NCBI GenBank assembly: GCA_036445875.1
Contig: JAZFRV010000227.1
Location: 1-36,637 of the forward strand
DNA length: 36,637 nucleotides
Source of the DNA: Anaerolineales bacterium
Lineage (GTDB): Bacteria > Chloroflexota > Anaerolineae > Anaerolineales > UBA11858
Direction of reading: 5' to 3'
The notes below the pieces were generated by a model. That model had not been told where the DNA came from. It searched no databases and worked only from the letters and a program-made list of their open reading frames with translations. The position numbers were made by a program, and so were the translations under genes. This document shows positions 14,934 through 34,113 of the stretch, one piece after another (the first letter of the stretch is position 1; each line of letters opens with the position of its first letter).

Positions 14934-14963
14934 ACCAGAAAAACAAAAACTCAGGAGAAAAGC

Positions 14964-19706: not shown

Positions 19707-19728
19707 GAGCCCGGTAAATACCGGGCTC
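19707..19728. terminator. Bidirectional terminator between the LysM gene and hdrA
   Basis: GAGCCCGG (19707-19714) pairs with CCGGGCTC (19721-19728) across the loop TAAATA. It is followed by TTTTGTTT on the plus strand, and A/T-rich sequence flanks the other side. Confidence 0.8.
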
Positions 19729-19752: not shown

Positions 19753-22368
19753 TCAGCGTCTGCGAATCCACCTAACACTATTTGATCGACAACCCGGACA
19801 GGAACGCTCAGAATCAGATTTGTATATTCCATTCCAGGTATCTTCACAGACAAGGCATAGAAAATCCGTCGGTTGATTTTCATCCTTATTCCTTGGATTA
19901 CGAGGTCCGGGCACCTTGGCTTCCATCAATAACGTATGGGTATCCTGGATCATATCAAGGCTTACGGAAAGGCGTTTTTCTTCTACCTGTTTCATGATAT
20001 GCTGCCAACGCCCTCCTTCAGCCGCTGAACACCATTCCAGCACCAATCTGGTGGGATCCAACCCAACCTTTTCCATGCCATCCCACAATCCATCCACTCG
20101 CCGGGTAGTGCTGCGATTGGCATCAATGTAATGGCAGTCCACATAATGGCAGCCGGATACCAATACAACTGGTGCTCCTTTTTTGAAGGCATACCAGACA
20201 AATTCCGGGCTAACCCTGCCGGAACACATGGTCCGGATAATATTGGCATGGGGAGGATATTCCATACGCCCCACGCCTGCGGTATCTGCACCAGCGTAGG
20301 AACACCAATTACAGGCAAACGTCACAATCGATTCTTGTGGATTTTCATCCAGCATAGCGTCTATTTGGGCGTAAATAGCCTGGTCAGAGAAATGACGCAT
20401 TTCGATGGACCCATATTTACATTCCGCAGCACATGTTCCGCAGCCAGTGCAGGCTGCGGTGATAACCTCAGCTGCCTGCCCTTTTTCCCAAATGATTGCA
20501 CTAAATGGACAAACATCGGCGCATAAACCACAAAGCTTGCACAGCCCTTCATCAATTACCGCGGTGATGGCATCCACAGAGAATTGATCTTGATTTAGCA
20601 AGATAGAAGCTCTTGAAGCAGCAGCGCTGGCCTGGGTGACACTTCCGCGGACATCCTTAGGGGATTCCACTCCTCCGGCTATAAATACACCCTTTGTGGG
20701 GGTATCAACTGGGCGCAGCTTAGGATGCGCTTCCCTTAAAAATCCACTCGGGGATTTAGAGAGACTGACCATTTGGCGGATGGTCTCTGTATTATCTGCT
20801 GGAACAGCTCCAACAGCCAATACCAGTAAATCAAAATTGTGTTGCTCCAGGCGGTTGCTGGTAGTGTTTTCCACTGTCAGCTTAAGATCTCCCGTGACAG
20901 GATCTTCCACTACATCACCGGGTAAACCACGGATATATGAAACTCCATTGGATTTACTTCGCATTAACAACTCCTCAAAACCTTTACCAAAGGCGCGAAG
21001 ATCTGTATAAAACACTGTGGACTCCACTTCCGGGTGGGCGTCATTTAAGTATTGGGTTGTTTTAATGGTGTTCATGCAGCAAAAATTTGAACAATAGGGG
21101 TTGCCGCGTTCCGGATCCTGGGTTCTGGACCCTACACATTGAATGAAACCAATCTTATTGGGAAAAGCCAGATCACTCGGCCGGCTCAGTTTCCCTTCCA
21201 AAGGACCACTGGTACATATTAACCGCTCGAACTCCAAACTGGTCATCACATTAGCGTAGTTTTTATATCCATATTCATCCAATGGAGTTGGATCATAAAG
21301 GTCCATGCCCGTCGCAACAATAACCACACCCACTTCTACATTTAATATTTCATCCTGCATCGTAAAATCAATACAGGCTTTTTCACAGGCTTCAATACAT
21401 TTCCCACAAGCAATCGGATTCTGCCCCAGGCATTCGTTTGCATTCACGACATATGCGGAAGGAACTGCTTGAGGAAAAGACAGGAAAATCGCCCGGCGGC
21501 TTCCTAATCCAACCTGGTATTTATCCGGGATCACGATCGGGCAGACTTCTGCGCAATCTCCACAGGATGTACACTGGGTTTCATCTACATAACGGGCTTT
21601 CTTGCGAATCCTGGCTTTAAAGTTGCCCACATAACCAGAGATATCTTCTACCTCTGAATGTGTTAGTAATTTGATGTTGGGATGTCGACCGACATCCATC
21701 ATTTTGGGTCCGAGTATTCAAATACTACATTCGATATCCGGATATACTTTATCCAGCTGAGCCATGATGCCGCCAATAGAAGGCTCACGTTCCACAAGGT
21801 AGACTTGATGCCCGGAATCTGCCAGATCGAGAGCCGCTTGAATTCCCGCTACTCCTCCTCCGATAACCAAGGCAGCATCAGTTACTTGAATCTGCTCTTC
21901 ATCTTGGGGAATCAACCACCGGGATCTCGCAACTGCAACCTTAACAGTTTTTTTGGCTTTTTCAGTAGCTGCCTTTTTATCACTGGCAGTCACCCAGGAG
22001 CAGTGTTCCCTGATATTTGCCATCTCCAGCAGATATGGATTTAACCCTGCCCCTTCAATACATTTGCGAAAGATCACCTCATAAGAGGTTGGGGAACAAG
22101 ACGCGACCACTATCCGGTTTAGATTAAAATCGGTTATGGCTTTTTGAATTTCCTGTTGGCCCGGTTCTGCACAAGTATATTTGTTCCGAATAGCCACAAT
22201 AACGTCGGGTAAACCCGCTGCATACTCCCTGACAGCCTCAGTGTCAACCGTTCCAGCAATATTTGACCCACAATCACAAACAAAAACCCCAATGCGTAAA
22301 TTGTTGTCTGGCAATGGTATCCTCCTATTCATTTTTTGTTTGATTTCAATAACCTGTATTTCATTCAT
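19753..22368 (-). CDS. hdrA: Heterodisulfide reductase subunit A-like flavoprotein, predicted selenoprotein (TGA at 21718-21720 read as Sec217), fused C-terminally to an MvhD domain and a zinc ribbon; 871 aa
   Basis: Track ORFs 21718-22368 and 19753-21702 are in the same frame, separated by TGA plus five sense codons. The joined sequence reads ...GGGVAGIQAALDLA...GGIMAQLDKVYPDIECSI-U-ILGPKMMDVGRHPNIKLL..., which is continuous with the conserved HdrA FAD-domain block. The downstream ATG has no RBS. Also present: the N-terminal Cys domain VFVCDCGSNI, an inserted ferredoxin CTSCGDCAEVCP, C-terminal 2x[4Fe-4S] CKLCGLCADVCP/CTGCGTCAAEC, MvhD-like FACNWCSYAGADTAG...CSGRV...VSGCHYVDCHY, and the tail CLVC-x17-CPGC. 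Confidence 0.8.
21672..21701 (-). promoter_or_regulatory. SECIS-like stem-loop downstream of the in-frame TGA of hdrA
   Basis: mRNA sequence: UGA AUACUCGGACCCAAAA UGAUG GAUGUCG GU CGACAUC CCAA CAUCA. The upper stem G(G)AUGUCG/CGACAUC(C) (21680-21697) has 7-8 perfect bp with a GGUC/GU apical loop. A lower 5-bp stem UGAUG/CAUCA adds a 4-nt bulge. The hairpin starts about 20 nt after the UGA. Confidence 0.55.
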
Positions 22369-23513
22369 ATTTGGTCAGCAATAATTGTAGTAAGATCACG
22401 AATATTAATTTGAATATCCTCCCCCAGGATGGGATCATTCTGGGCACATTTAAGATGGATCTGACATTTGATACAAGCGGTAATTAATAAATCAGCCCCG
22501 GAAGATTTTGCCTCTTCCAAGCGCTCCACTTGAGCTTTTTTATTCACCTGTCCACATGAAGTCCAGCAGCTAGTTCCACAGCACAGACTGGATTTACGAT
22601 TGTGGGTCATCTCCTTTACTTTGAAACCCAATCCCCTAATTAACTCACGAGGTGATTGATATACCCCGGAAAATCGTCCCAATCGGCAAGGATCCTGATA
22701 GGTAACCGGTTTGTTCTTATTAGCAGAATTATCGGGGAGGGTTTCCAACAAATCTGTATCTACCAATAATTCTGCCAGATGCAAAACCTCCATCCCGGAA
22801 TTCCCGATTATTTCAGGATAAGTGTGTTTTAAGGTCCAGGCACATTCAGGACAAGTAGTAACTATTCGTTTGGCTCCGGTAGACATAAGGTTCAATAAAT
22901 TCGTTTCCCCCAATTTACGAAAGATATTCATATCACCTTGCCAATATTGATCATGACCACAACAGCGCTCATCCTTTAATACTATGGGTTCAATACCCAG
23001 ATAGTTGAGAATTTTAAGGGCTGCCCTGGTAATGTCTATCCCCTCAATATCCAATTGGCTGAAGGCAGCATCATAATACGGCAAACAACCGGTAAAGAAT
23101 ACCGTATCAGAGTCTTCAGAGACCTGGAGATCATCTTCAATCCAGTCCAGCCGGTTCTGTTTCAAATCAGGATCAGACATCATTCGGCTCCAGGTTTGCA
23201 TCATCCCACTGTGGGTGCAATTGGCAGACTGATTCCGATCTCTGGCTCCTTCCCGGATATTCTGGATAAAATCAGAAAAAGATACCTGGGAGGGACATAT
23301 CTCAGTGCAGTAATTACAGGTTAAGCAAGACCAGAGAAGTGGGTCGTTTAATATGGCTTCTTCACCTGAATTGATCGCCATCTCAACCAGCAGCCGGGGA
23401 CTGGTATAAGGTTCAACAATATGCCTGGTAATAGGACAGACTGAACTGCATTTACCACAATCCAGGCAAAGCCAAACCCGGTTCGATTGGATGATTTCTT
23501 TTAATCCATTCAT
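22365..23513 (-). CDS. Fused HdrC-HdrB-like subunit (2x[4Fe-4S] ferredoxin domain plus two CCG domains)
   Basis: 382 aa. CLDCGKCSSVCP and CLTCNYCTEICP (HdrC-like). Two complete CCG signatures: C-x40-CCG-x35-CPEC and C-x34-CCG-x34-CIKC. ATGA overlaps with both neighbouring genes. Confidence 0.8.
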   Translation of the reverse strand: MNGLKEIIQSNRVWLCLDCGKCSSVCPITRHIVEPYTSPRLLVEMAINSGEEAILNDPLLWSCLTCNYCTEICPSQVSFSDFIQNIREGARDRNQSANCTHSGMMQTWSRMMSDPDLKQNRLDWIEDDLQVSEDSDTVFFTGCLPYYDAAFSQLDIEGIDITRAALKILNYLGIEPIVLKDERCCGHDQYWQGDMNIFRKLGETNLLNLMSTGAKRIVTTCPECAWTLKHTYPEIIGNSGMEVLHLAELLVDTDLLETLPDNSANKNKPVTYQDPCRLGRFSGVYQSPRELIRGLGFKVKEMTHNRKSSLCCGTSCWTSCGQVNKKAQVERLEEAKSSGADLLITACIKCQIHLKCAQNDPILGEDIQINIRDLTTIIADQI

Positions 23514-23917
23514 TGATTTCCTAGAATCTCATCAATCCCATTTGTAAAAATTTGGATAATCTCTCTAAAGGATTTGCCGTCCCTAGTATCTACAAAATCC
23601 AGTTGGAATTGATTATCGTTGTAACCCAACAAGTTCAGAAGATTTCTGGTTTCCGGAACAATCTCGGCAATCTGTTTGTTCCCGGTTTCATATTGACACT
23701 CACCTTGGCTACAACCAAGTAATAATACGCCGTTGGCACCATTCTCAAATGCTCTCAAAATTATTCCCGGTGTGATTCGGCCCAGACAAGCAATCCGGAT
23801 TGGGTATACAGTGGGAGAATAAGGAATCTTCTCAGCTCCAGCTGCCTCAAGACCACTGTAAGCATTCCAATTACAGGTAAATAAAATAATCTTTGAAATC
23901 TTCTCTTCTGTTTTCAT
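23510..23917 (-). CDS. mvhD: MvhD/FlpD-like [2Fe-2S] electron-transfer subunit
   Basis: 135 aa. ILFTCNWNAYSGLEAAG...IRIACLGRITPGIILRAFENGANGVLLLGCSQGECQYETGN matches the methyl-viologen-reducing hydrogenase delta subunit family. Confidence 0.8.
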   Translation of the reverse strand: MKTEEKISKIILFTCNWNAYSGLEAAGAEKIPYSPTVYPIRIACLGRITPGIILRAFENGANGVLLLGCSQGECQYETGNKQIAEIVPETRNLLNLLGYNDNQFQLDFVDTRDGKSFREIIQIFTNGIDEILGNQ

Positions 23918-23918
23918 A

Positions 23919-26900
23919 TTAAGCCAGAATTGTTTTTATCATTTCCTCCAACTGCAGGTCTGGGGAGTGTCCAGGGGTAATCGCTCCGGAAGGGCAAATT
24001 GCTGCGCAGATGCCGCAGGCAAGGCATAATTTTGGATCAATGAAAGAATATCTGCCAGAGGCCTCTTCTATGAGGTCCGGAATACCAAATCCACAAACCT
24101 CAACACATGTTCCGCAAGCCCGGCAGCGGGATTTATCAACCTCAGCTGCAGACAATTCTGTTTTGTTATTAATCTTGTTTATCCAGGCAGCAATCCGGGC
24201 AGCCCCGGACATTCCTGAAATCTCGGCATTCACATCAGGTGGGAACATGAGTACTCCAAAATCCAGTGAATTGATCCGTGAGTCTACTAATTGAAAAAGC
24301 GAGCGACCATCAGGCATCTGAAGCACATCACACAAAAGCTTTTGCTCCTTTTTGGTTCCCGGAGTAATAACCAGCAGATCCGTCAATAATTCAGAGCTTT
24401 CAAATGTCAGGATAACATGGCCGCCCTTTCGAAGGATCTTTTTCGGAATCTCACCTATCATTTCTGTTTCTATGCCCAACTCGATCAGAGAGGACTTGCA
24501 AATTTCCCCAGCTGGTCCACTTCCGACAATGAGAACTTTATTGGATTCATAAGTGTGTGATTGCTCTCCAGTTTTTCTAGATCGGAGGCGTGACAGGGCA
24601 GTTATAATCAGGATTTTTGCTATTTCAGTAGCCTTATCCGGGAGATCTTGATGTACCCAGGCACATTGTTCACGGATATTTACAAATTCGATGGGAATGC
24701 TGCTCTTTAAGGATGAAAAAATTCCCAGGTTGTCTTTGCAGCGTAACCGCTGATAAGTACAGCTGAAACAGATCTGATCCAGGGAGCAGCAGGTGCAGGC
24801 TGCAAGAATTACCTTATCGAGGTCCTCTACCTGGATGATATCCATAATTTCACCTGCAGCATCTTCAGAACAGGAGAATTGCAGTTCCTGAGCATGGACT
24901 ATTCCAGACCAGTTCACTGCCTCTGCGCTGAGGGTATTTGTATCGACAATATCGGAGATCTCACCTCCACACTGGCAGAGGAACAATCCGATTCTATCCT
25001 CGGCCTTCTCCAGTAAAGCTAGTTGAGGGATATTCTGAATAGTAGGAATCAGGTTTAATTTTAAATCCTTCATCACCTGGTACGCGGCAGCCGATCCCGT
25101 TTCCAGGTCCTCCCCGGCAACTTGGTATCCCTCAACACCATCAAATTCAATCGGGATATCGTCTGCAAATATCACTGCACCAGCGTCTATAAACGATCTT
25201 GATGAAGTTTGATTATGGATTATCGCACCCGGCTCACAAACCTCCACACAGGCCATACATTGGCTGCAGGGACCACAAATTAAACAGCGCCCAGCTTCCT
25301 GTAAGGCAGCTTCTTCACCGAGAGTCAAACCAACTTCATAAAAATTATTTTTCCGATCCTTTACTGGTAAGTGAGTTATCGCAGCCCTATTAAATCTAAC
25401 CTGATCTCTTTGATCAAGCCTGTTTCGCATTTCTTTCTGGCTTAGAATTACTTCCGAAGGTCCACTCTCCGTGATCTCGAGTAATTTCCCCTTCAGATAA
25501 TTATCTATGGACCGGGCAGCATGATGCCCTTCCCCGACTGCATCAACAACAAAAAAGGTAGTTCCGCGACGAACATCCCCCGCAGTAAATACACCCTCCA
25601 TCGATGTCATCATCCGGGAATCAGCCCGAATTCCTTCCGGAGAAAGTACGGTAATCCGGTCATTTTTCGGTAAAAATCCGAAATCCGGCCTTTGTCCAAC
25701 AGCCCAAATCACCAGGTCCCCGGGAATAATATGTTCAGTTCCGGGAAGCTCACTGAATTGGCGTTTTCCATCAATTACCTCTCCTATTTCCGCATCCAAA
25801 CATTCCACCCCGGAAATATCACGTTGGTCGAGGACTATTTTCTTAAATACCTTCCCCCGGATGATTTCGATTCCCTCTTCTTCAGCATCCAGGATTTCAT
25901 TAAACGATGCCCTCATCCCCCTGCATACCAATCGGACTTCTGGAGTACCCAATCGAATTGCTGCCCGGGCAGCATCCATGGCAACATCACCACCACCCAG
26001 GACAATGACTTTTCTGCCGCTGAGATCAATTTTTTCCCCCAGACAAACCTTTTTCAGAAACTCTAGACTGAGCCAGTTCTGGGGATGATCAGCATTTTCA
26101 ATAGGAATTTTCACTGCCTCGTGGGCACCTGTAGCTATCAGAACTGCGTCATATCCATTACTTAAAAGCCCGGGAATATCATCCACCCAGGTATTCAGTT
26201 TAAGGTCAACACCCTCCGAAAGGATTTGTTGAATTTCCCAATCCAATTGATCATATGGTAAACGATGAGGAGGAATGCCAACCCGCATCATGCCGCCAGC
26301 TGTAGAATTAGCATCAAAAACTGTAACCGCATGCCCGCTGTGGATCAAATCTCGGGCGGCAGTTAACCCTGCCGGGCCTGCCCCGATAATAGCTACTTTT
26401 TTTCCCGAAGAGGGACGCTTATCATCTGAAGTGCTATCCAAAGAAAGCTTTGGATCCTCTGATTGGTCATCTTTTCGCCTGTAAGCCCAATCCGCCACAT
26501 ACCGTTTCAAAGCCATCAGGTTTACCGCTTCATCCAATTGCGCACGTGAGCAGGCTTCTTCACAATAATGATTGCACACACGTCCACAGACGGATGGAAA
26601 CGGCAGTGCCGAGTGGATCAGATCATATGCTTCCTGGTACCGTTCCTGGGCGATCAATGCCACATAACCCTGAACGTGAATACCTGCTGGACAGGCATAT
26701 GTGCAGGGAGAAACTCCTGCTTTTTCTATCACTGCACAACCAGGCTGTCCTTCCAGAAAAATGGCTTTTCGATCAGATCCGGGAACTATCACCGGGCAGA
26801 TCTCGATACAATCACCACAAGCAGTGCATTTCGAGAGATCTACATATCGGGGATACTGCTGCAGAACAGCCTGAAAGATCCCGTTCACTTTAGTTAATTT

Positions 26901-27116
26901 CTGCAGCGATGTATTTGTCCAGGGAGTAATATTCGGATGTTTTAGAATTTCCAGCAATCTTTGGTTTAATAAATAATCCGGGAAGAGGTGCTCTCCGTTT
27001 ATCCCCATAAACGGACTGGATTCAATGACGTTCACCTTAATCCCTGAAAAGGCAAGGTCCAATGCAGCTTGTAATCCTGCCTGGCTGCTGCCAATGATGA
27101 GCACTTCTTTAACCAT
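23919..27116 (-). CDS. Large HdrA-like / NfnB(GltD)-like mosaic flavo-iron-sulfur protein (HdrL-like), 1065 aa
   Basis: aa 1-130: HdrA-type Rossmann start VLIIGSSQAGLQAALDLA plus CTACGDCIEICP. aa ~136-545: GltD/NfnB-like module (CTYACPAG...CGRVCNHYCEEAC, VAIIGAGPAGLTAARDL, VIVLGGGDVAMDAARAA, VFTAGDVRRG). aa 611-630: CLICGPCSQCMACVEVCEPG. aa 708-822: HdrA N-domain-like (LFLCQCGGEI...FVNIREQCAWV). aa 861-: VLIVGSGPAGE. aa 997-1045: CRACGTCVEVC/CLACGICAAICP. Confidence 0.75.
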   Translation of the reverse strand: MVKEVLIIGSSQAGLQAALDLAFSGIKVNVIESSPFMGINGEHLFPDYLLNQRLLEILKHPNITPWTNTSLQKLTKVNGIFQAVLQQYPRYVDLSKCTACGDCIEICPVIVPGSDRKAIFLEGQPGCAVIEKAGVSPCTYACPAGIHVQGYVALIAQERYQEAYDLIHSALPFPSVCGRVCNHYCEEACSRAQLDEAVNLMALKRYVADWAYRRKDDQSEDPKLSLDSTSDDKRPSSGKKVAIIGAGPAGLTAARDLIHSGHAVTVFDANSTAGGMMRVGIPPHRLPYDQLDWEIQQILSEGVDLKLNTWVDDIPGLLSNGYDAVLIATGAHEAVKIPIENADHPQNWLSLEFLKKVCLGEKIDLSGRKVIVLGGGDVAMDAARAAIRLGTPEVRLVCRGMRASFNEILDAEEEGIEIIRGKVFKKIVLDQRDISGVECLDAEIGEVIDGKRQFSELPGTEHIIPGDLVIWAVGQRPDFGFLPKNDRITVLSPEGIRADSRMMTSMEGVFTAGDVRRGTTFFVVDAVGEGHHAARSIDNYLKGKLLEITESGPSEVILSQKEMRNRLDQRDQVRFNRAAITHLPVKDRKNNFYEVGLTLGEEAALQEAGRCLICGPCSQCMACVEVCEPGAIIHNQTSSRSFIDAGAVIFADDIPIEFDGVEGYQVAGEDLETGSAAAYQVMKDLKLNLIPTIQNIPQLALLEKAEDRIGLFLCQCGGEISDIVDTNTLSAEAVNWSGIVHAQELQFSCSEDAAGEIMDIIQVEDLDKVILAACTCCSLDQICFSCTYQRLRCKDNLGIFSSLKSSIPIEFVNIREQCAWVHQDLPDKATEIAKILIITALSRLRSRKTGEQSHTYESNKVLIVGSGPAGEICKSSLIELGIETEMIGEIPKKILRKGGHVILTFESSELLTDLLVITPGTKKEQKLLCDVLQMPDGRSLFQLVDSRINSLDFGVLMFPPDVNAEISGMSGAARIAAWINKINNKTELSAAEVDKSRCRACGTCVEVCGFGIPDLIEEASGRYSFIDPKLCLACGICAAICPSGAITPGHSPDLQLEEMIKTILA

Positions 27117-27133
27117 CGTTTTTCCCTATCGAA

Positions 27134-28696
27134 CTATTCATCCAGCTCCAATCCTCTTTTGTAGCCGGCTTCAAATACTTCCAAATTTAAACTAACTGTT
27201 TTAGCAGGTACAGATTCTGCAATTGCTTCCTGCATAGCTTCTTTATCTACTATTCGTTCCACCGCGGTCCAAAAACCCAGCATAGCTGTATTTGCGGCCC
27301 TGTTGTTGCCAGCATCCTTGGCAATTTTTGTAGCAGAAATTCCAAAGGTTTTAATATCATCCCGGTGATCTTCCGGGAGGGTCACTAATTCATCATCTAT
27401 CAACAGGACTCCATCCTGCTTAAGATCTGCAATATATTTTTCGTATGCCCCCTGGGACATCATGATCATGCTGGTTGGCTGAGTCAGATGAGGATGGTGG
27501 ATAGGTTTACTGGAAATCACCACTTGTGATCCTGCCGCTCCCCCTCTTGCTTCCGGTCCATAACTTTGAGTAAAACACGCCTCCAGATTGTTATAAACAG
27601 AAGCTGCCATACCAATAATCTTGCCTGCGCTCATAATGCCCTGACCCCCAAAACCACCCAGCTGAATTTCAGTTCGGGACACTTTCTCTTTTTTTGGTGG
27701 TAATTTTTTCCGTTTATCAAGAGCGTCTTTTTCACCCTGCCAGTATTTTTCAGCCAGATCTTTTCGCTGATTAATAGCCTCTTTAAAATCTGGCCTAGAC
27801 TCCTGCAGGAATTCACCTTCTACGATTTCTATCATTTCTCCGGACTCATTTACTTTAACGTGAGCATCTTTGGGATGAATTCCGTGTTCTGTCCGTCCTA
27901 CTTTCTGGTAATGTTTCATAACCTCCAAACCGCGCCGTTGGAGGTTTTCCGGATCCAATCCCTTCCCTTCTGGATTCCAACGGGCATAAGCAGTTGAACA
28001 AGGAGCGATAATTTCCACAAAACTGAAGCCGGAATGGGTTAACGCTTTCCTCAATGTCCAATCCAATTGACGGGCATGGAGCGTTGTCCAGCGGGCGACA
28101 AAGGATGCCCCACTGGCTGCGGCCAGATAAGGCAAGTTAAAAGGGAATTCATAATTTCCATATTGAGCAGTGACCGCCCGGGCTTCATGGGGTGTTGTTG
28201 GACCCACCTGGCCACCAGTCATACCGTAATTAAAATTGTTCACACAAACTACCGTGATACTTAGATTTCTCCTGGCAGCATGGATCAAGTGATTTCCTCC
28301 AATACCTGCCATATCTCCATCTCCGGATATGACGATTACCTTCAACTCCGGATTGGCGATTTTCAGACCGGTAGCAAAAGGAATTGCCCTGCCGTGAGTT
28401 GTGTGGAAGGAATCCAACCTGACATAACCAGCAATCCTGCCTGTGCAACCAATACCGGATACAACAGCAACTTTATCCAGATCCCATCCCTGATTTTTCT
28501 CCAGCCATTGTAAGGAGCTGATAAAGGAAGTTAAAGCAGTTCCCAAACCACAGCCCTGGCACCAGATATGGGGAAGTCTTTCTCCACGCAGTAAATCATC
28601 CATCGGGTGCAATCCGGTTTCCCAATCACTGTCAGCCGGTGTATCATAATTCATAATCCGCAACCGTTCACTACGTTCCATTTCATCAGTTGTCAT
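27134..28696 (-). CDS. 2-oxoacid:ferredoxin oxidoreductase beta (TPP-binding) subunit fused to the gamma subunit
   Basis: 520 aa. Beta-subunit motifs WCQGCGLGT, SGIGCTGR, ISGDGDMAGIGGNH. A Lys-rich linker DKRKKLPPKKEKV follows. Then the gamma-subunit motifs IQLGGFGGQGIMSAGKI...GPEARGGAAGS. Confidence 0.8.
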   Translation of the reverse strand: MTTDEMERSERLRIMNYDTPADSDWETGLHPMDDLLRGERLPHIWCQGCGLGTALTSFISSLQWLEKNQGWDLDKVAVVSGIGCTGRIAGYVRLDSFHTTHGRAIPFATGLKIANPELKVIVISGDGDMAGIGGNHLIHAARRNLSITVVCVNNFNYGMTGGQVGPTTPHEARAVTAQYGNYEFPFNLPYLAAASGASFVARWTTLHARQLDWTLRKALTHSGFSFVEIIAPCSTAYARWNPEGKGLDPENLQRRGLEVMKHYQKVGRTEHGIHPKDAHVKVNESGEMIEIVEGEFLQESRPDFKEAINQRKDLAEKYWQGEKDALDKRKKLPPKKEKVSRTEIQLGGFGGQGIMSAGKIIGMAASVYNNLEACFTQSYGPEARGGAAGSQVVISSKPIHHPHLTQPTSMIMMSQGAYEKYIADLKQDGVLLIDDELVTLPEDHRDDIKTFGISATKIAKDAGNNRAANTAMLGFWTAVERIVDKEAMQEAIAESVPAKTVSLNLEVFEAGYKRGLELDE

Positions 28697-28740
28697 AAAA
28701 TTTTCTCCACATTTCCACCATAAAATCCCATCGATTGGAT

Positions 28741-29931
28741 TCAGGTCTTCTGGGGGACTGCTGCAGCTTTCCTGATCGCATTTAAGACATCCTCGGGATC
28801 CAGAATATCACCCCCGGGTTTATGAACTCCGAATACCTGTGCCTGCCCGGCAGCACTTCGTTCCACCTCGCGGACAATCTGCCCCATATTAATTTCCGGC
28901 ACTACAAATGCGCTGACCTTTTTGGCTAGTTTTGAGATGGTATCTTCCGGAAAAGGCCAAACAGTGATTAACCGGAGATAACCAACCTTAATGCCTTCTT
29001 TTCTAGCCTGCTCAATCGGCCAGAGAGAGGTTCTGGCTGAGATACCATAGGAAATTACAACTACCTCGGCATTCCTAAGTTTGTCGGTTTCTACTTCAAT
29101 TATTTCTTTCCTATTGGCATTGATTTTATCCATCAAGCGGGTGACATTCCACTGATTTGCTTCAGCGTTCATAGCGGGATAACCACGCTCGTCGTGTGTC
29201 AAACCAGTAACATGAATGCGGTAACCATCCCCGGCTTTCACCATGGGAGATATATGTTTTGGATCACTTGCAGGACTATCCCTGAATATTCTGAAATGGT
29301 CCGGCTCTAGATCTCCTTTATGAACTAGCGGTCGGTTGATGATTTCTATTTCTTCAACAGGCGGGATGACAACTTTTTCTGTCATGTGACCAACTTCTGC
29401 ATCAGTCATGACCAGAACGGGTGTCCTGTATTTCTCAGATAGATTAAAAGCCCGGATAGTCAGGTCAAAAAGTTCCTGAGGGGAGCTGGGGCAGAGAGCA
29501 ATAATTTCATAATCACCGTGAGAACCCCATCTAGCCTGCATCATATCCTGCTGCCCGACCAGTGTTGGTAAACCGGTAGATGGTCCTCCCCGTTGGACAT
29601 TCACTATCACACAGGGGGTTTCCAGCATTATTCCAAGACCAAGATTCTCCATCATCAATGAAAACCCAGGACCGCTGGTTGCTGTCATTGATTTTTCGCC
29701 TGCCCAGGAAGCGCCCAGGATAGCATTCATGGATGCCAACTCATCTTCCATCTGGATAAAATTTCCATTCACCTGAGGAAGCCGAACAGACATTCTTTCT
29801 GCAATTTCCGTTGCCGGCGTAATCGGGTATCCAGCAAAAAATCGACAGCCAGCCAGGATCGCTCCTTCCGCACAGGCATGATCTCCCAACATAAAATGTT
29901 CTCCGCTAAGTCTGCCTTTTTCTTTATTCAT
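28741..29931 (-). CDS. 2-oxoacid:ferredoxin oxidoreductase alpha subunit
   Basis: GDHACAEGAILAGCRFFAGYPITPATEI...TSGPGFSLM...QRGGPSTGLPT. I moved the start to Met20 of the track ORF (ATG at 29931). It has a GGAG RBS and an 8-nt overlap (ATGAATAA) with the delta subunit stop. Confidence 0.85.
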   Translation of the reverse strand: MNKEKGRLSGEHFMLGDHACAEGAILAGCRFFAGYPITPATEIAERMSVRLPQVNGNFIQMEDELASMNAILGASWAGEKSMTATSGPGFSLMMENLGLGIMLETPCVIVNVQRGGPSTGLPTLVGQQDMMQARWGSHGDYEIIALCPSSPQELFDLTIRAFNLSEKYRTPVLVMTDAEVGHMTEKVVIPPVEEIEIINRPLVHKGDLEPDHFRIFRDSPASDPKHISPMVKAGDGYRIHVTGLTHDERGYPAMNAEANQWNVTRLMDKINANRKEIIEVETDKLRNAEVVVISYGISARTSLWPIEQARKEGIKVGYLRLITVWPFPEDTISKLAKKVSAFVVPEINMGQIVREVERSAAGQAQVFGVHKPGGDILDPEDVLNAIRKAAAVPQKT

Positions 29932-30235
29932 CCATACTCCCCTGGCGGTGAATTGGTATGACTCTTTCAGGCGAATGTTTTCCACCATCTTCTATATATA
30001 TTGCAAAATCAGGACACAAGAGTGTACATAAACCACAATTAATACATTGAGTACCAGGAATAATTTCCGGAGGATGATACCCTTTGGCATTTGTACGTTT
30101 AGAAATCTCTAGAATTTCCTGGGGACAGAATTCAATGCAAAAACCGCACCCTTTACACCGGTCATCGACGATATGAACGATACCGTGTGTAATAAGAATG
30201 CGGTCCCTGTCAAGTGGTTGTCTCCAAAGAGTCAT
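29924..30235 (-). CDS. 2-oxoacid:ferredoxin oxidoreductase delta subunit (2x[4Fe-4S] ferredoxin)
   Basis: 103 aa. CKGCGFCIEFCP and CINCGLCTLLCP. GGAGG RBS directly upstream. Its position ahead of the alpha subunit is typical of four-subunit OFORs. Confidence 0.8.
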   Translation of the reverse strand: MTLWRQPLDRDRILITHGIVHIVDDRCKGCGFCIEFCPQEILEISKRTNAKGYHPPEIIPGTQCINCGLCTLLCPDFAIYIEDGGKHSPERVIPIHRQGSMDE

Positions 30236-30366
30236 AGCTCCTCCCTGGTAAGTTCAATAACCAACAACCAATAAAGTTTAATCAATCTATCAGATGCAAA
30301 TCTATTAATATGTTTTCGAATATTCTCAATAAAATGCGCTGCATTAACAACCAAATCTGATTTTGG

Positions 30367-31398
30367 TTAGAACATCAGATTATTTATCTCCTCCAGTGAT
30401 TTTGGATCCGGGCGTAATTTTTCATTCGGCAAACGATTCAGGGGTGTATCTGGTAAATCATACAGGTCAAAAAGGGATTTTTGTTTCGGATTGATATATA
30501 TTAATCCGGTAATTAACTCGTTTCTATCGTTGGCTTCTTCCAGCATCTGGAGAGCATTTGCTCTATCAGTTGGTTCATAATCATGGGCAAGTTTTTTAAG
30601 GATGATATGGGTACCATCGTAGAGCGGTACTTCCAATGCTTCGCCTTTTTCATACTGAACCTTAATTGCACGAACAGGCGGGACAAAAGATAACTCATGC
30701 AGTGCAACCTCATGAGATTTGCCCCAAGCATAGGAATGGAAAGAATCATCCTGGTTGTTAAAAGTCACACAAGGACTGATCACATCGATGACTGCAATTC
30801 CGCGATGATGAATTCCTGCTTTTATGAGTGCCTTCAATTGCTGGGGATCCCCGGAAAATGTTCGAGCCACAAATGATGCCCGCCCGGCGATGGCTTCCCA
30901 AACAATATCTACCGGCACATATCGGTTCTGGCCCTGTTTTTTGAGCGCTAACCCCTGTTCCGCAGTAGCTGAAAACTGGCCCTTCGTTAAACCATAAACC
31001 CCATTATTGGCTACGATATAGAGAAATGGCAAATTTCGGCGTGTTACATGTTTAAACTGACCCATCCCAATACTCGCAGTATCTCCATCACCACTCACTC
31101 CGATTCCAATCAGGGATGTATCTCCAAACAAGGCGCCGGTAGCAAGGGATGGCATACGCCCATGTAAACCATTAAATCCAAACGCACGATTCATAAAATA
31201 GGTCGGTGCTTTGCTTGAACAACCAATCCCGCTAACTTTAATCAATCTTTCCGGCGGGATATTCAATTCATAACAGGCAGAGATAATCTGACCAACAATA
31301 GCGTTATGGCCGCAACCCAAGCACAAGGTGGTTTGTTTTCCCTTGTAATCTTCTTTGGATAATCCAATTTCATTCAACTTGACCGTTTTCTCAGCCAT
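30367..31398 (-). CDS. korB: 2-oxoglutarate/2-oxoacid:ferredoxin oxidoreductase beta subunit (two-subunit KorAB type)
   Basis: TLCLGCGHNAI, SGIGCSSK, GVSGDGDTASIGMGQF. I moved the start to Met14 (ATG at 31398), with a TAATG overlap with korA and a GGAG RBS. Confidence 0.8.
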   Translation of the reverse strand: MAEKTVKLNEIGLSKEDYKGKQTTLCLGCGHNAIVGQIISACYELNIPPERLIKVSGIGCSSKAPTYFMNRAFGFNGLHGRMPSLATGALFGDTSLIGIGVSGDGDTASIGMGQFKHVTRRNLPFLYIVANNGVYGLTKGQFSATAEQGLALKKQGQNRYVPVDIVWEAIAGRASFVARTFSGDPQQLKALIKAGIHHRGIAVIDVISPCVTFNNQDDSFHSYAWGKSHEVALHELSFVPPVRAIKVQYEKGEALEVPLYDGTHIILKKLAHDYEPTDRANALQMLEEANDRNELITGLIYINPKQKSLFDLYDLPDTPLNRLPNEKLRPDPKSLEEINNLMF

Positions 31399-33215
31399 TA
31401 AGATTTCTCCTCTTCCATCACTGCTGCTTTGATCCAATCTGCACTCAGGGGCATACCATCAATATGCGATACGGATACCAGGTCAGGTGCGCTATCAGGC
31501 AGTTCTAAAGAAAGAATACTGTGCATTTGTCCATCCCGGTTATTTTCAACCACATAGATTCGCTTATACTCCCGGATGAAATCCAATACTTCTGCTGCAA
31601 CAGGTAGCGCGCGCACTCGCAAATAATCCAGTGTCAATCCCTCATCCTGTAATGAATCACAGGCTTCCCTCACCGCAGAATCTGTAGATCCAAAGGCAAT
31701 AACCCCAGACTTAGCACCGGAACGGGTAGTAATTTCCGGTTTTGGCAGGATCGCTCTGGATGATTCTATCTTTCTATTAATTCGATCCAGGTTTTCTTCC
31801 CATTCTTCAGGTTTTTCGCTGTAATTTGCAAAATCATCATGTCCTGTACCCCGGGCATAATAGGCACTCCTGGGATGCTGATTTCCCGGTACTGTTCGAT
31901 AAGGGATATTGTCTCCATCAAGATCAAGATACCTGCCCCACTTATCCTTTATCTTTTCCAGATCCTCTTCCCAGAGGATCTTGCCCCGGTCAATGGGCTC
32001 ATCCGGGTACTCAAATGGCGGTGTCATCCATTGATTTAGACCCAAATCTAAATCAGAAAGCACAAATATCGGCGTTTGCAGCTTTTCAGCCAGATCGAGG
32101 GCTTTCCAACCAAACTCAAAACACTCTTTAACTGTACCGGGAATAAGCACTACGTGTCTAGTATCTCCCTGGCCAAGGTAATACGTTTGGTTAACGTCAC
32201 CCTGTGCTGTCCGGGTTGGCAGCCCGGTACTAGGTCCCACCCGCTGAATTACCCAAATCACAACGGGTATTTCCACAAAATATGCCAGGCTTGCATATTC
32301 ACTCATCAAGCTCAATCCGGGACCGGAGGTAGCGGTCATTGCTCGTAATCCTGCCCAACCTGCCCCAACCACCATACCAATCGCAGCCAATTCATCCTCA
32401 GCCTGAATGATTGCATAAGTATCCTTACCAGTTTCGGGATCTTTTCTCAAGCCTGGAGCAAATTCCAGAATTGCCTCAGGTAAACTTGTTGCCGGAGTAA
32501 TTGGATACCAGGAAACGAAATGCATGCCCCCGTAGATAGTGCCCAATCCTCCAGCGGTATTGCCGTTTGCCAGATTAAACCCTTCAGTTAGATTCAGAGG
32601 TTGAACCTGAAAAGGTGAAACAATCTCCAGGTTGTTTTCAGCCCAATGGAAAGAATCATGGATCACAGACAAATTAAAATCGATAGGACCCTTTTTCCCT
32701 TTAAAGTGAAAATCAAGGGCGCTTTCGATAGTTTCCAGCTGGACCTTTAACAGGAAAGCCAATACTCCAACATACACCATATTAGCAACATAATCCCTCA
32801 GTTCACGGGGAGGTTTGGCTTCTTTTACGATGGATTTTACCGGCATGGGGCAGAGAATCAGGTCTTCCCGATGAATAGGTTCCTTAATATGATCTGCATA
32901 AAGAAAAATACCCCCTGAAACCAGGTCGGTCAGATCATCCCCAAAAGTCTTTGGATTCATTGCGACTGCAATTTCTGTCTTTTGACTGCGTCCCAAATAA
33001 CCGGCTTGGCTGACTCTTATTTTATACCAGGTAGGTAAACCTTGAATATTTGATGGAAAAATATTCTTTCCAGACACAGGTATCCCCATTTTAAAGATTG
33101 ATCTTATCAATGTTAAATTTGCTGTCTGACTGCCAGACCCATTTATGGTAGCGATATTGATTGAAAATTCATTCACTACCTTCTGTGTTTGCAATTTTAA
33201 CTGTGTTTTTGCCAT
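31398..33215 (-). CDS. korA: 2-oxoglutarate/2-oxoacid:ferredoxin oxidoreductase alpha subunit (gamma-alpha fused, KorA type)
   Basis: 605 aa. N-terminal gamma-like domain INIATINGSGSQTANLTL, then the alpha core WYPITPATSL...TSGPGLSLM...QRVGPSTGLPT. AGGAG RBS upstream. Confidence 0.8.
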   Translation of the reverse strand: MAKTQLKLQTQKVVNEFSINIATINGSGSQTANLTLIRSIFKMGIPVSGKNIFPSNIQGLPTWYKIRVSQAGYLGRSQKTEIAVAMNPKTFGDDLTDLVSGGIFLYADHIKEPIHREDLILCPMPVKSIVKEAKPPRELRDYVANMVYVGVLAFLLKVQLETIESALDFHFKGKKGPIDFNLSVIHDSFHWAENNLEIVSPFQVQPLNLTEGFNLANGNTAGGLGTIYGGMHFVSWYPITPATSLPEAILEFAPGLRKDPETGKDTYAIIQAEDELAAIGMVVGAGWAGLRAMTATSGPGLSLMSEYASLAYFVEIPVVIWVIQRVGPSTGLPTRTAQGDVNQTYYLGQGDTRHVVLIPGTVKECFEFGWKALDLAEKLQTPIFVLSDLDLGLNQWMTPPFEYPDEPIDRGKILWEEDLEKIKDKWGRYLDLDGDNIPYRTVPGNQHPRSAYYARGTGHDDFANYSEKPEEWEENLDRINRKIESSRAILPKPEITTRSGAKSGVIAFGSTDSAVREACDSLQDEGLTLDYLRVRALPVAAEVLDFIREYKRIYVVENNRDGQMHSILSLELPDSAPDLVSVSHIDGMPLSADWIKAAVMEEEKS

Positions 33216-33269
33216 TCACACTCCTGAAAAAACAACCCCAAACTTCTCTAGTAGATTAATTCTGAAATA

Positions 33270-33923
33270 TCAGACCAACATGCGATCCATCAAGTCAAAG
33301 TGCTCATGGAGGACTTTCAATCCCCGGGACTTATCCTTGATAATCGCGGCTTCGGCCAATTGTTCGTGGTAAGTCCAAACCTGTTCCAGGTATTCCAGGT
33401 CTGCGTAGACATTTAGTCCAACCGCTTCATAAGCATCCCAGTAGGCTTCCAGCAAACCTGACACAAAAATATTATTCAGACGGTTAAATAATGTGAGATG
33501 TAATTGGCGGTGTTCATCGTGGGGAATTCTAACAGGACTTCCCCTTAATTTTTCCCAGGCGTCCTGAACCAGCCGCCTCAGTTGCTGGTGATCTGATTTT
33601 TGCAAAAGGTCAACAGCCTGGGGAAAGTAAGCATATTCCAAATGCCTTCGAAGATCTACAAACTTTTCAAAATAACTGTTATCAAACTGGATCGCATAAC
33701 ATAAACTGGCATCTACAGCTGGTGCAAATGAATACGGAAGTGGTCGAATCCCCAACCGGGGTCGAACATCCACCAAACCCAAGGCTTTAGCAACTTCCAG
33801 CTGTTCCCTCAACCTGGAGATGCTTAATCCCAGTTCTATGCTGAGATCCTTCAGCGAAGGTAGCTTTTCATTTTCAGTTTCTGAATTTTGAAGGAGATAG
33901 AGAAAGAACTCTGAATGATCCAT
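33270..33923 (-). CDS. GntR-family transcriptional regulator, FadR subfamily (FCD C-terminal domain)
   Basis: HTH LPSLKDLSIELGLSISRLREQLEVAKALGLVDVRPRLGI followed by an all-helical C-terminal domain. I prefer the start at Met16 (33923, AGGGG RBS). The promoter -10 box abuts the track ATG at 33968. Confidence 0.75.
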   Translation of the reverse strand: MDHSEFFLYLLQNSETENEKLPSLKDLSIELGLSISRLREQLEVAKALGLVDVRPRLGIRPLPYSFAPAVDASLCYAIQFDNSYFEKFVDLRRHLEYAYFPQAVDLLQKSDHQQLRRLVQDAWEKLRGSPVRIPHDEHRQLHLTLFNRLNNIFVSGLLEAYWDAYEAVGLNVYADLEYLEQVWTYHEQLAEAAIIKDKSRGLKVLHEHFDLMDRMLV

Positions 33924-33968
33924 AGATTCGCCCCTAATATGATTAATCTGATCAATAAGATTAATCAT

Positions 33969-33997
33969 ATTATAACATTCTCGGATTTTAGCGTCAA
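33969..33997 (-). promoter_or_regulatory. Near-consensus sigma70-type promoter for the GntR regulator and probably the downstream OFOR/Hdr genes
   Basis: On the minus strand: TTGACG (33992-33997), 17-nt spacer, TATAAT (33969-33974). Confidence 0.6.
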
Positions 33998-34010
33998 GAA
34001 TAAATTAAGA

Positions 34011-34038
34011 GACCCGGTGCTTTTGCTAACACCGGGTC
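34011..34038 (-). terminator. Rho-independent terminator after the M20 amidohydrolase gene
   Basis: GACCCGGTG (34011-34019) pairs with CACCGGGTC (34030-34038). On the minus strand it is followed by TCTTAATTTATTCTT. Confidence 0.65.
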
Positions 34039-34113
34039 CCTATTAGTCAACAAAACGATCCGGAATCTACCAGGGAATAGGGATCATTGATCTGGGCAGT
34101 TATTCTGATTGAA

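Follow-up and report, generated by a model that had tools for sequence, protein, structure and literature searches.

A colinear cluster of 2-oxoacid:ferredoxin oxidoreductase and selenocysteine-containing Hdr-type genes in Anaerolineales

What do homologues of the heterodisulfide reductase HdrABC do in bacteria that have neither coenzyme M (CoM) nor coenzyme B (CoB), and how can a very low-potential 2-oxoacid/acyl-CoA couple be linked to the pyridine-nucleotide pool? A compact case for both questions is offered by a gene cluster on contig JAZFRV010000227.1 of an Anaerolineales bacterium (assembly GCA_036445875.1; 36,637 nucleotides, the whole of which is called the window below). Anaerolineales belong to the most abundant bacteria of anaerobic digesters, sediments and the subsurface, and what is known of their energy metabolism comes, to our knowledge, almost entirely from genomes. 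The cluster consists of ten co-directional open reading frames (ORFs) on the minus strand (33968-19753), which encode a GntR-type regulator, two 2-oxoacid:ferredoxin oxidoreductases (OFOR1 and OFOR2) and the Hdr-type proteins HdrL, MvhD, HdrCB and HdrA2 (Table 1). This layout, with its junction spacings, had been given in a preliminary description of the contig, and our ORF check of the window recovered all ten ORFs at the coordinates first given; every component on its list was found again by Pfam and NCBIfam scans. We find that OFOR2 and the Hdr-type genes form a conserved colinear core, which we consider a probable single functional redox system. As to its function, we tentatively favor a reversible HdrABC-type bifurcating/confurcating complex that would link NAD(P)H, a thiol/disulfide and a probable 2-oxoglutarate:ferredoxin oxidoreductase (OGOR) and would run in the oxidative, confurcating mode. 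A conserved module of seven genes in which an OGOR-type enzyme is joined to an NAD(P)H-linked, selenocysteine (Sec)-containing Hdr would be a central redox node in Anaerolineales.

Conservation of the OFOR2-Hdr core

Relatives were collected by a scan of one genome per species, which gave 80 loci, together with tblastn using the ten window proteins, ORF clustering and context look-ups. The genes for OFOR2 delta, alpha and beta-gamma, HdrL, MvhD, HdrCB and HdrA2(Sec) are colinear in 17 of 17 Chloroflexota loci, the window included. Approached from the HdrL side, and wherever the contig was long enough, the colinear loci are L001, L003-L007, L010, L019 and L081-L085; the three contexts approached from the OFOR2 beta-gamma side (L086-L088) all have the same order. 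Thus the adjacency of OFOR and Hdr genes, whose absence from relatives had been named beforehand as an argument against the linkage, was kept in every related locus examined. The genes flanking the core are unrelated among loci (GH31, M24, InhA-like, NusA/IF2, MoxR, Opp and sulfatase genes), HdrL identity across the colinear loci spans 39-91%, falling to 39-49% in the distant ones, and the junction between OFOR2 beta-gamma and HdrL is tight in all of them, from a 66-nt gap to a 17-nt overlap.

The short, 1065-aa type of HdrL found in the window has more than 120 full-length homologues (45-91% identity), and those with a named source come from Anaerolineales or Chloroflexota. About 65 loci carry a longer, classical HdrL (in Syntrophaceae, Desulfobacteraceae, Bathyarchaeia, Cloacimonadota and others) and lack an OFOR next to it; in L069 alone an OFOR occurs, which is distant and lies on the opposite strand. 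The association with an OFOR thus appears specific to the short HdrL subfamily. These observations bear on the simplest alternative, a chance adjacency of two unrelated metabolic modules. The 131-nt spacer between the OFOR1 and OFOR2 genes and the restriction of OFOR1 and gntR to some lineages do give the cluster a modular look, but a core that stays colinear in all 17 loci amid unrelated flanks and over this range of HdrL identity, and only with one HdrL subfamily, makes chance very improbable; synteny effectively refutes it.

The core does not extend to the whole cluster. The genes for GntR and OFOR1 are confined to the closer relatives (L001, L005-L007, L081 and L088) and, from this distribution, appear to be a lineage-specific addition, only OFOR2 being part of the conserved core. 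The two OFORs, listed side by side in the preliminary description, are thus not equivalent partners.

In some contigs of metagenome-assembled genomes (MAGs), splits or frameshifts disrupt OFOR and Hdr genes, for example HdrCB (L005, L088) and OFOR1 alpha (L007, L081). We take these to be probable assembly errors and not pseudogenes, and gene integrity judged from MAG contigs is to be read with caution.

Subunits of the core and a proposed electron path

The translations of both OFORs carry the expected signatures (the thiamine pyrophosphate (TPP) motif GDG-X-NN, [4Fe-4S] cysteines, YPITP, a gamma domain, and a delta subunit with 2x[4Fe-4S]). OFOR2 is of the four-domain type, with delta, alpha and a beta-gamma fusion; at least 120 homologues of the latter (73-96% identity) are, every one, beta-gamma fusions in Chloroflexota. 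The OFOR2 subunits match the OGOR delta, beta and alpha models best, yet all below the equivalog cut-offs. The top match of the beta part is PRK09628 (2-oxoglutarate:ferredoxin oxidoreductase beta), the top solved relatives of the alpha subunit are 1yd7_A and 8ys5_A (2-oxoglutarate synthase alpha subunit), and beta-gamma homologues are labeled '2-oxoglutarate ferredoxin oxidoreductase subunit beta' at JGI. The succinyl-CoA ligase genes sucCD lie near the cluster, as had been reported, and in the distant locus L010 sucD is directly upstream of OFOR2 delta, with sucC also upstream on the same strand, so that sucCD occur near OFOR2 in two independent lineages. Because of the OGOR matches and these two sucCD contexts, OFOR2 is a probable 2-oxoglutarate:ferredoxin oxidoreductase with succinyl-CoA as the partner. 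Its alpha subunit likely starts at M20 (29931), since orthologues begin to align there. OFOR1 is a two-subunit enzyme whose alpha subunit scores 510 bits on TIGR03710 (cut-off 483) and has the Magnetococcus OGOR 6n2n_A as its top solved relative; the likely start of its beta subunit is ATG 31398.

A side observation concerns L087, where a gene for a BcrAD/BadFG-type ATPase (381-1424) overlaps the OFOR2 delta start. Members of this family serve as activators of 2-hydroxyacyl-CoA dehydratases and require low-potential electrons; the gene may be a further link to glutamate/2-oxoglutarate fermentation.

HdrL joins HdrA-like and GltD/NADH-binding parts in one polypeptide and is followed by mvhD. 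Residues 3-114 correspond to the N-part of the HdrA thioredoxin reductase (TrxR) domain, with FPDYLLNQ where DCxxC is expected; residues 133-645 form a GltD/NfnB-type module for 2x[4Fe-4S], flavin adenine dinucleotide (FAD) and NAD(P)H, whose closest solved relatives are NfnA of NfnABC, StnA and NfnB; residues 705-893 match the HdrA N-terminal domain with an added Cys-rich insert; and residues ~990-1050 match the HdrA-type C-terminal 2x[4Fe-4S] ferredoxin domain. HdrL aligns to HdrA2 only at HdrA2 residues 167-296, 25-282 (weakly) and 591-673, and no complete HdrA module with an FPTxDCxxC/U motif was found in it. From these alignments HdrL appears to be a set of HdrA fragments around a GltD/NfnB module and not a second intact HdrA, and the two HdrA-type bifurcating modules of the preliminary description were therefore an overstatement: only HdrA2 is a full HdrA. 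We infer that the site for NAD(P)H is provided by HdrL, and that HdrL may mimic dimer-partner surfaces of HdrA and thereby dock MvhD and HdrA2.

Several features of HdrL stand beside this assignment. The Cys-rich insert, CTCCSLDQICFSCTYQRLRC (window 24738-24797, HdrL 774-793), lies inside the HdrA-N-terminal-like domain and has no counterpart in HdrA2; five of its cysteines are invariant and one nearly so in 11 homologues, and it may bind an extra Fe-S cluster. JGI names had hinted that the C-terminal ferredoxin domain could be an OFOR delta-like docking domain, an idea we discarded since its best match is the HdrA2 C-terminal ferredoxin domain. HdrL and MvhD are fused in L083 and L084. In five relatives a second, divergent HdrL paralogue stands in tandem between HdrL and MvhD (Table 1); the window has one HdrL.

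HdrA2 appears to be a complete HdrA, with the N-terminal domain, the TrxR-like FAD domain and both the inserted and the C-terminal ferredoxin domains. Its residues 25-676 align to 13-656 of the HdrA 8rvu_a with 742 bits (5odc_A is matched as well), and on NF040770, the model of Methanosarcina HdrA2, it scores 1084 bits against a cut-off of 1100 (25-803 to 1-772 of 777). An MvhD domain is fused to it (FlpD at 681-798, 2.3e-41; 134 bits against MvhD 5odc_D), which together with the stand-alone gene makes the two MvhD modules reported earlier. The end of the protein (~804-871; 19753-19960) is a tail of ~70 aa with a zinc-ribbon/rubredoxin-like CxxC-X18-CxxC and a basic WIRRR end. The tail is absent from the Methanosarcina HdrA2 model and aligns to its end in L001, L003 and L005, that is, it is conserved in the clade.

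An in-frame TGA interrupts the HdrA2 gene where the HdrA DCxxC motif has its second Cys, and the ORFs on the two sides (21718-22368 and 19753-21702) are in frame across it; gene callers split the gene here in all metagenomic contigs. In the motif FPTxDCxxC-ILxPK the recoded codon is TGA in every OFOR-linked orthologue and TGC/TGT in most other lineages. A hairpin resembling a selenocysteine insertion sequence (SECIS) follows the codon. In L041, L046, L066 and L067 it carries a compensatory U-A to C-G change (GGAUGCC-GGUC-GGCAUCC), and the mean minimum free energy (MFE) of this region is -11.5 kcal/mol in 35 Sec sequences versus -5.5 in 56 Cys sequences. The Sec-containing HdrA of the preliminary description is thereby upheld. 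We rely on within-lineage compensatory changes and on the MFE comparison and give no pooled covariation count, because the hairpins of two lineages are in different registers; a single consensus SECIS over all Sec-HdrA lineages was tried and dropped, as an ungapped alignment puts them out of step.

Other Sec-containing loci were seen in Chloroflexia (L008-L017, L058 and L071), with FPTLDCAA-U-ILTPK twice per locus, once in a separate upstream HdrA gene and once in a long HdrL, and with a different SECIS-like hairpin (GGUGUCC-GUK-GGACGCC). Since the motif occurs there twice per locus, Sec use in HdrA-type proteins appears widespread in Chloroflexota. No selA, selB, selC or selD gene lies within the 36.6-kb window, where ARAGORN found no tRNA. 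AIRS-domain ORFs upstream of the cluster in L003 were considered as selD and rejected, as their translation is that of a frameshifted HypE/ThiL-like gene lacking the SelD N-terminal motif.

HdrCB is an HdrC-HdrB fusion whose CCG cysteines are C143/C184/C185/C221/C224 and C276/C311/C312/C347/C350. All 18 motif cysteines (two CCG motifs and two four-Cys motifs) are invariant in 10 orthologues, in agreement with the earlier statement that both CCG domains are intact. The protein is HdrD/TfrB/GlpC-like: its best NCBIfam match is TfrB, below the cut-off, its matches include GlpC, GlcF and LdhH, and its best solved relative is 9ojn_A. As had been noted, no thiol carrier is encoded in the window, the flanks of the cluster included. 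All-versus-all ORF clustering of nine loci yielded no conserved thiol-carrier gene (DsrC, TusE, LbpA), and CoM, CoB, DsrC and LbpA genes are absent from the window and from the conserved core.

These matches speak to a reading with neither a supercomplex nor thiol chemistry. The OFORs would merely be co-regulated with a soluble ferredoxin:NAD(P)+ oxidoreductase or transhydrogenase-like enzyme of HdrL, MvhD and HdrA2, and HdrCB would be an iron-sulfur relay or a non-disulfide enzyme, comparable to the MetFV-HdrABC-MvhD complex of Moorella, in which the role of HdrBC is debated (PMC5861303). It fits this reading that HdrD/GlpC/GlcF/LutA-type CCG proteins are often relays or have non-disulfide substrates, that GltD/NfnB-like modules, the top solved relatives of HdrL, are plain NAD(P)H:Fe-S entry points in NfnABC, Stn and related enzymes, and that a thiol partner is encoded in no locus examined. 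However, the ten CCG cysteines, which build the non-cubane catalytic clusters of HdrB, are strictly conserved in orthologues spanning the clade, HdrA2 retains the full bifurcating architecture including the Sec/Cys site, and the OFOR2 beta-gamma/HdrL junction is tight in all loci. We regard mere co-regulation as unlikely; were it true, the cluster would be one more Hdr variant, useful mainly for annotation.

Under the reversible Hdr-OFOR system that we favor, electrons would take the following path. The GltD/NfnB-type module of HdrL, in place of a hydrogenase or F420 input, would exchange hydride with NAD(P)(H), and MvhD together with the HdrA-like scaffold domains of HdrL would wire this module to the FAD of HdrA2, where an electron pair would be split or merged. 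The high-potential branch would run through HdrCB, whose two CCG sites would act on a thiol/disulfide, and the low-potential branch would reach OFOR2, either via free ferredoxin or directly through the OFOR delta subunit. In the oxidative mode 2-oxoglutarate and CoA would give succinyl-CoA and CO2, electrons of about -500 mV would merge with thiol-derived electrons to reduce NAD(P)+, and ATP could then come from SucCD or ADP-forming acyl-CoA synthetases. In the lineage of the window, a PdhR-like GntR/FCD repressor and a second, two-subunit OFOR would have been added ahead of the core.

A stronger form of this proposal, which we think rather unlikely, has OFOR2 as a stably docked subunit of a bacterial Hdr supercomplex, HdrL as a pseudo-HdrA protomer that heterodimerizes with HdrA2, and direct electron transfer in place of soluble ferredoxin. 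If so, the complex would be, in a bacterium and with NAD(P)H as the driving donor, what the Hdr-Fmd supercomplex is in methanogens, and a mechanism to make or use electrons of about -500 mV for C-C bond chemistry from NAD(P)H. Such hard-wiring would generalize the methanogen principle of passing bifurcated electrons straight to a CO2-converting enzyme, and would give experimental access to the Hdr-OGOR alliance so far inferred for symbionts with the reductive tricarboxylic acid (rTCA) cycle.

Regulation of the cluster and direction of electron flow

The promoter ahead of the cluster matches at 11 of 12 positions, which agrees with its earlier description as near-consensus, and is the top site across the 14.8-kb region, in which promoter-like sites as a class show no excess (23 found versus 27.4 expected from shuffles). 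Hexamers resembling the -35 and -10 elements occur at the equivalent position in the orthologous loci L005, L007 and L081. The -10 hexamer directly adjoins the first ATG of the mechanically called GntR ORF. Upstream of it, the terminator hairpin of the M20-peptidase gene is the upstream limit of the transcription unit. At the other end, the hairpin between the convergent HdrA2 and LysM genes had been called a strong terminator. The hairpin itself is real; the wording is only partly right because the T-run is good on the plus strand, that of the LysM gene, and weak on the cluster strand (tail AATGTTTAAT).

Within the unit, the 131-nt spacer contains no promoter and no terminator passing the scan, and an operator motif sought there showed only a loose ATTAAT/ATTGAT resemblance that is not significant. 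Just before the ribosome-binding site (RBS) of OFOR2 delta, at ~30254-30276, the sequence TTTATTGGTTGTTGG-TAT-GA is kept in L001, L005, L007 and L081, the rest of the spacer not being kept; it could be an internal regulatory site, an internal promoter or an RNA element. In L010, L083 and L084 a sigma-70-like promoter belonging to the OFOR2-Hdr operon itself occupies the spacer position.

The first gene encodes a GntR/FCD-family regulator. Its mechanical ORF is probably 15 codons too long, with M16 (ATG 33923) as the start in place of the ATG at 33968 used before, because orthologues align only from residue 14-15 and 33939-33968 is conserved as non-coding sequence upstream of the ATG matching M16; a purine-rich RBS precedes ATG 33923. 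The non-coding stretch so defined, between the -10 hexamer and the RBS, holds a perfect inverted repeat made of three ATTRATC units ~10 bp apart, a helical spacing. The repeat recurs upstream of gntR in L005, L007 and L081 in the conserved form GGATTAATC-N10-TATTAATCAT, and a similar element lies upstream of OFOR2 delta in L004. It does not fit the classical FadR-type TnGT-N-ACnA consensus. It is a likely operator overlapping the transcription start, and the regulator may bind it. A regulator gene placed first, with an operator at the promoter, resembles the 2-oxoacid-responsive PdhR of pdhR-aceEF-lpd.

In which direction would such a system run? The couples concerned lie at about -520 mV (2-oxoacid), about -320 mV (NAD(P)H) and -140 to -250 mV (disulfides), and the chemistry would be near equilibrium and reversible. 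Two hypotheses had been offered at the outset, one coupling 2-oxoacid oxidation and NAD(P)H to the reduction of a disulfide, the other driving reductive carboxylation by bifurcation from NAD(P)H. They describe one reversible reaction read in either direction; the sequence does not allow a choice, and context leans to the first. Catabolic genes flank the core in several lineages, including the 5-oxoprolinase PxpABC (L010), an ADP-forming acyl-CoA synthetase with an MFS transporter (L082) and an Opp peptide transporter (L085). Because of these flanks, and of a GntR/FCD regulator encoded first with a conserved operator at the promoter, the gene context appears to tilt toward the oxidative, catabolic direction.

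The same machine run reductively seems to us a somewhat doubtful alternative. NAD(P)H would be bifurcated at HdrA2, the endergonic branch would drive OFOR2 as a 2-oxoglutarate synthase on succinyl-CoA and CO2, and the exergonic branch would reduce a disulfide that a thiol:fumarate-reductase-like enzyme elsewhere in the genome would regenerate; the product would enter a reductive TCA branch or the synthesis of glutamate. Such a model has been published for the rTCA clusters of Gammaproteobacteria, in which korABCD lies between hdrA and hdrBC beside tfrAB, and co-expression speaks for it (PMC6315080, PMC11636981). Like the window, those symbionts carry both a four-subunit and a two-subunit OGOR, and the TfrB match of HdrCB and the nearby sucCD genes also fit. 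For bifurcated electrons hard-wired to a CO2-fixing enzyme, the methanogen Hdr-Fmd supercomplexes are a precedent (PMC13580544). Against the reductive direction, tfrA/frdA, aclAB and other rTCA markers are absent from the window and from all 17 loci, the flanks are catabolic as listed above, and it is in catabolic operons that a substrate-responsive GntR/FCD repressor is more typically found. Moreover, the cultured Anaerolineae known are fermentative heterotrophs.

Several points weigh against the oxidative Hdr-OFOR complex that we prefer. Neither a thiol carrier nor a disulfide-generating enzyme is encoded by the window or by the core genes of any locus, and thiol oxidation in a fermenter is without clear physiological sense. 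With HdrCB as a query, phmmer retrieves methanogen HdrC and not HdrB, and the HdrD/GlpC/TfrB-like CCG part may not act on a disulfide at all. The substrate specificity of the OFOR is presumptive; the NCBIfam equivalog cut-offs for Kor subunits are not reached. An AlphaFold2 model of HdrL, built from an 11-sequence alignment, has a mean predicted local distance difference test (pLDDT) value of 59.5 and a predicted template modeling (pTM) score of 0.41, too poor for domain packing or wiring. With a spacer of 131 nt inside it and a weak terminator on the minus strand, the cluster admits more than one transcript structure. Finally, the sole published model of an Hdr-OGOR alliance runs in the opposite, reductive direction.

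Around the cluster, the window holds sucCD, an IDI-2-type enzyme, a polyprenyl synthase and a LysM protein on one side, and an M20 amidohydrolase and a PSP1 protein on the other. The product of the convergent LysM gene (18547-19680) has two LysM domains, linkers rich in Thr/Pro, a membrane helix and, at the N-terminus, a zinc-ribbon-like CxxC...CxxC; the gene is found in synteny in L001, L005, L007 and L081 and has the terminator hairpin in common with the hdr operon. An Rfam scan of the window found nothing.

Table 1. Genes and sequence elements of the cluster, with coordinates in the window unless a locus is named
Feature	Position	Strand	Signatures and remarks	Junction to next gene
Terminator hairpin of upstream M20-peptidase gene	34008..34041	-	14-bp stem, 8 GC pairs, tail TAATTTATTC	
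Sigma-70-type promoter	33969..33997	-	TTGACG-17-TGTTATAAT (-10 = TATAAT), extended -10 TG	
Operator-like inverted repeat (putative)	33939..33968	.	ATGATTAATC-N10-GATTAATCAT, perfect 10-bp repeat	
GntR/FCD-family regulator	33270..33923 (probable start)	-	FCD 5.5e-10, weak GntR 8.8e-4; mechanical ORF to 33968	gap 54 nt
OFOR1 alpha, gamma-alpha fusion, two-subunit KorA type	31398..33215	-	POR + POR_N; YPITP motif	1-nt TAATG overlap, given OFOR1 beta start at ATG 31398
OFOR1 beta (TPP, [4Fe-4S])	30367..31398	-	TPP_enzyme_C, PFO_beta_C; CxxC...C...C + GDGD-X-NN	spacer 131 nt
Spacer between OFOR1 and OFOR2 modules	30236..30366	-	AT-rich, 131 nt	
OFOR2 delta, 2x[4Fe-4S] ferredoxin-like	29924..30235	-	Fer4_7; top NCBIfam matches OGOR_delta, OorD	8-nt overlap (29924-29931), given OFOR2 alpha start at M20 (29931)
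OFOR2 alpha	28741..29931 (likely start)	-	POR_N + PFOR_II; NF006412 568 bits versus cut-off 411	gap 44 nt
OFOR2 beta-gamma fusion	27134..28696	-	TPP_enzyme_C + POR; linker ~90 aa	gap 17 nt
Short HdrL-like protein, 1065 aa	23919..27116	-	Fer4_20 + Pyr_redox_2 + HdrA pieces	gap 1 nt (after HdrL stop codon)
Stand-alone MvhD, [2Fe-2S] connector	23510..23917	-	FlpD 9.3e-35	ATGA overlap
HdrC-HdrB fusion, HdrD-like	22365..23513	-	Fer4_8 + 2 CCG domains; 2x CxxCxxCxxxC	ATGA overlap
HdrA2-type subunit, 871 aa, UGA readthrough	19753..22368	-	Full HdrA + fused MvhD (681-798) + 4-Cys tail	
In-frame UGA (selenocysteine)	21718..21720	-	Second Cys of HdrA DCxxC motif (...DCSI-C-ILGPK)	
SECIS-like hairpin	21680..21697	-	GGAUGUC-GGUC-GACAUCC; 20 nt 3' of UGA, GGUC apical loop	
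Bidirectional terminator hairpin between convergent HdrA2 and LysM genes	19707..19728	.	9-bp stem, 7 GC pairs	
sucC + sucD (succinyl-CoA ligase)	13800..15824	+	~4 kb from cluster	
Second tandem HdrL in relatives	L003 13302-16717; L019 11308-14644; L082 13963-16683; L086 13843-17163; L087 7917-11303			

Comparison with known systems

The nearest functional parallel is found in tubeworm symbionts and Thioflavicoccus mobilis, where flxABCD-hdrABC genes are interleaved with korABCD and tfrAB, and direct electron delivery to OGOR has been proposed (Rubin-Blum 2019, PMC6315080; Mitchell 2024, PMC11636981). As in these organisms, an NAD(P)H-dehydrogenase and Hdr module is co-directional with a four-subunit OGOR, and a second two-subunit, KorAB-type OGOR is present. 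The NADH module differs: it is FlxABCD there, and HdrL (a GltD/NfnB-HdrA-fragment fusion) with a free MvhD here. The kor genes lie between hdrA and hdrBC there, with tfrAB and aclAB nearby, whereas flxABCD, tfrAB and ATP-citrate lyase genes were found neither in the 36.6-kb window nor in the 17 related loci. Here, in addition, HdrA2 contains Sec and a fused MvhD, HdrC forms one polypeptide with HdrB, and heterotrophic Anaerolineales are the hosts, in contrast to autotrophic sulfur oxidizers.

HdrA2B2C2 of Methanosarcina acetivorans is a bifurcating enzyme dependent on ferredoxin and F420H2; for homologues in bacteria, the authors of that work predicted the use of NADH and of other disulfides (Yan, Wang and Ferry 2017, PMC5296606). 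The cluster has in common with it the MvhD fused to the C-terminus of HdrA and the HdrB/C partners. The donor there is F420H2 and the acceptor CoM-S-S-CoB, while here an HdrL NAD(P)H module and an OFOR are co-encoded, the Cys is replaced by Sec, HdrC is fused to HdrB, and HdrA2 has an extra 4-Cys C-terminal tail. With the methanogen MvhAGD-HdrABC and Hdr-Fmd complexes (5odc, 7bkb, 8rvu, 9sw2) the cluster shares an HdrA that is homologous end to end, MvhD, the HdrC clusters and the CCG motifs. The principle is also shared: a mid-potential donor module feeds a bifurcating FAD, from which one branch leads to a disulfide and another, of low potential, can be wired firmly to an enzyme that converts CO2. 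The donor here would be NAD(P)H and not H2 or formate, the low-potential partner a TPP-dependent OFOR and not formylmethanofuran dehydrogenase, and the host is a bacterium with no CoM/CoB.

NfnAB and Stn also use a GltD/NfnB-type subunit to join low-potential Fe-S electrons to pyridine nucleotide; NfnAB, however, requires the small subunit NfnA (PyrK-like, [2Fe-2S] and FAD), and the cluster has no PyrK/NfnA-like gene. In PadEFGHI, the NAD+-dependent phenylglyoxylate:acceptor oxidoreductase, a GltD/NfnB-type FAD/[4Fe-4S] subunit couples OFOR electrons to pyridine nucleotide, but Pad is without HdrA, HdrB and MvhD. The cluster proteins gave weak matches to PadG and PadI.

HdrL itself was named in Desulfobacterium autotrophicum as an uncharacterized HdrA/glutamate-synthase fusion followed by mvhD (PMC2702500). 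In Syntrophobacter fumaroxidans growth with sulfate goes along with a high abundance of an HdrABC/HdrL complex; the same work points out an 'HdrAL/POR' cluster (Sfum_0012-0018), which was not detected in the proteome (PMC5947623). With these the Anaerolineales protein shares the large fusion of HdrA to the small subunit of glutamate synthase, the mvhD that follows, Sec variants within the family and the proposed entry of NADH into an Hdr-type (con)furcation (PMC2702500, PMC5947623). Classical HdrL is ~1450 aa long, has a complete HdrA module with DCxxC kept (FPTNDCAMC) and often a fused MvhD; from the 1065-aa Anaerolineales form DCxxC and, in both HdrA-like parts, the TrxR core have been lost, and it is the only subtype that is consistently beside an OFOR. 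DsrC, the partner proposed in sulfate reducers, is not evident at the Anaerolineales loci.

We found no published description of the Anaerolineales module, our coverage of the literature being incomplete. The newness implied by the preliminary description has to be narrowed, as the alliance of Flx-Hdr with korABCD and tfrAB was proposed before (PMC6315080, PMC11636981). The concept of an Hdr-OGOR alliance has thus already been put forward from genomes elsewhere, and what is new here is the architecture, distinguished by a short HdrL that replaces Flx, a Sec-containing HdrA2 with a fused MvhD, a fused HdrCB and an OFOR beta-gamma fusion.

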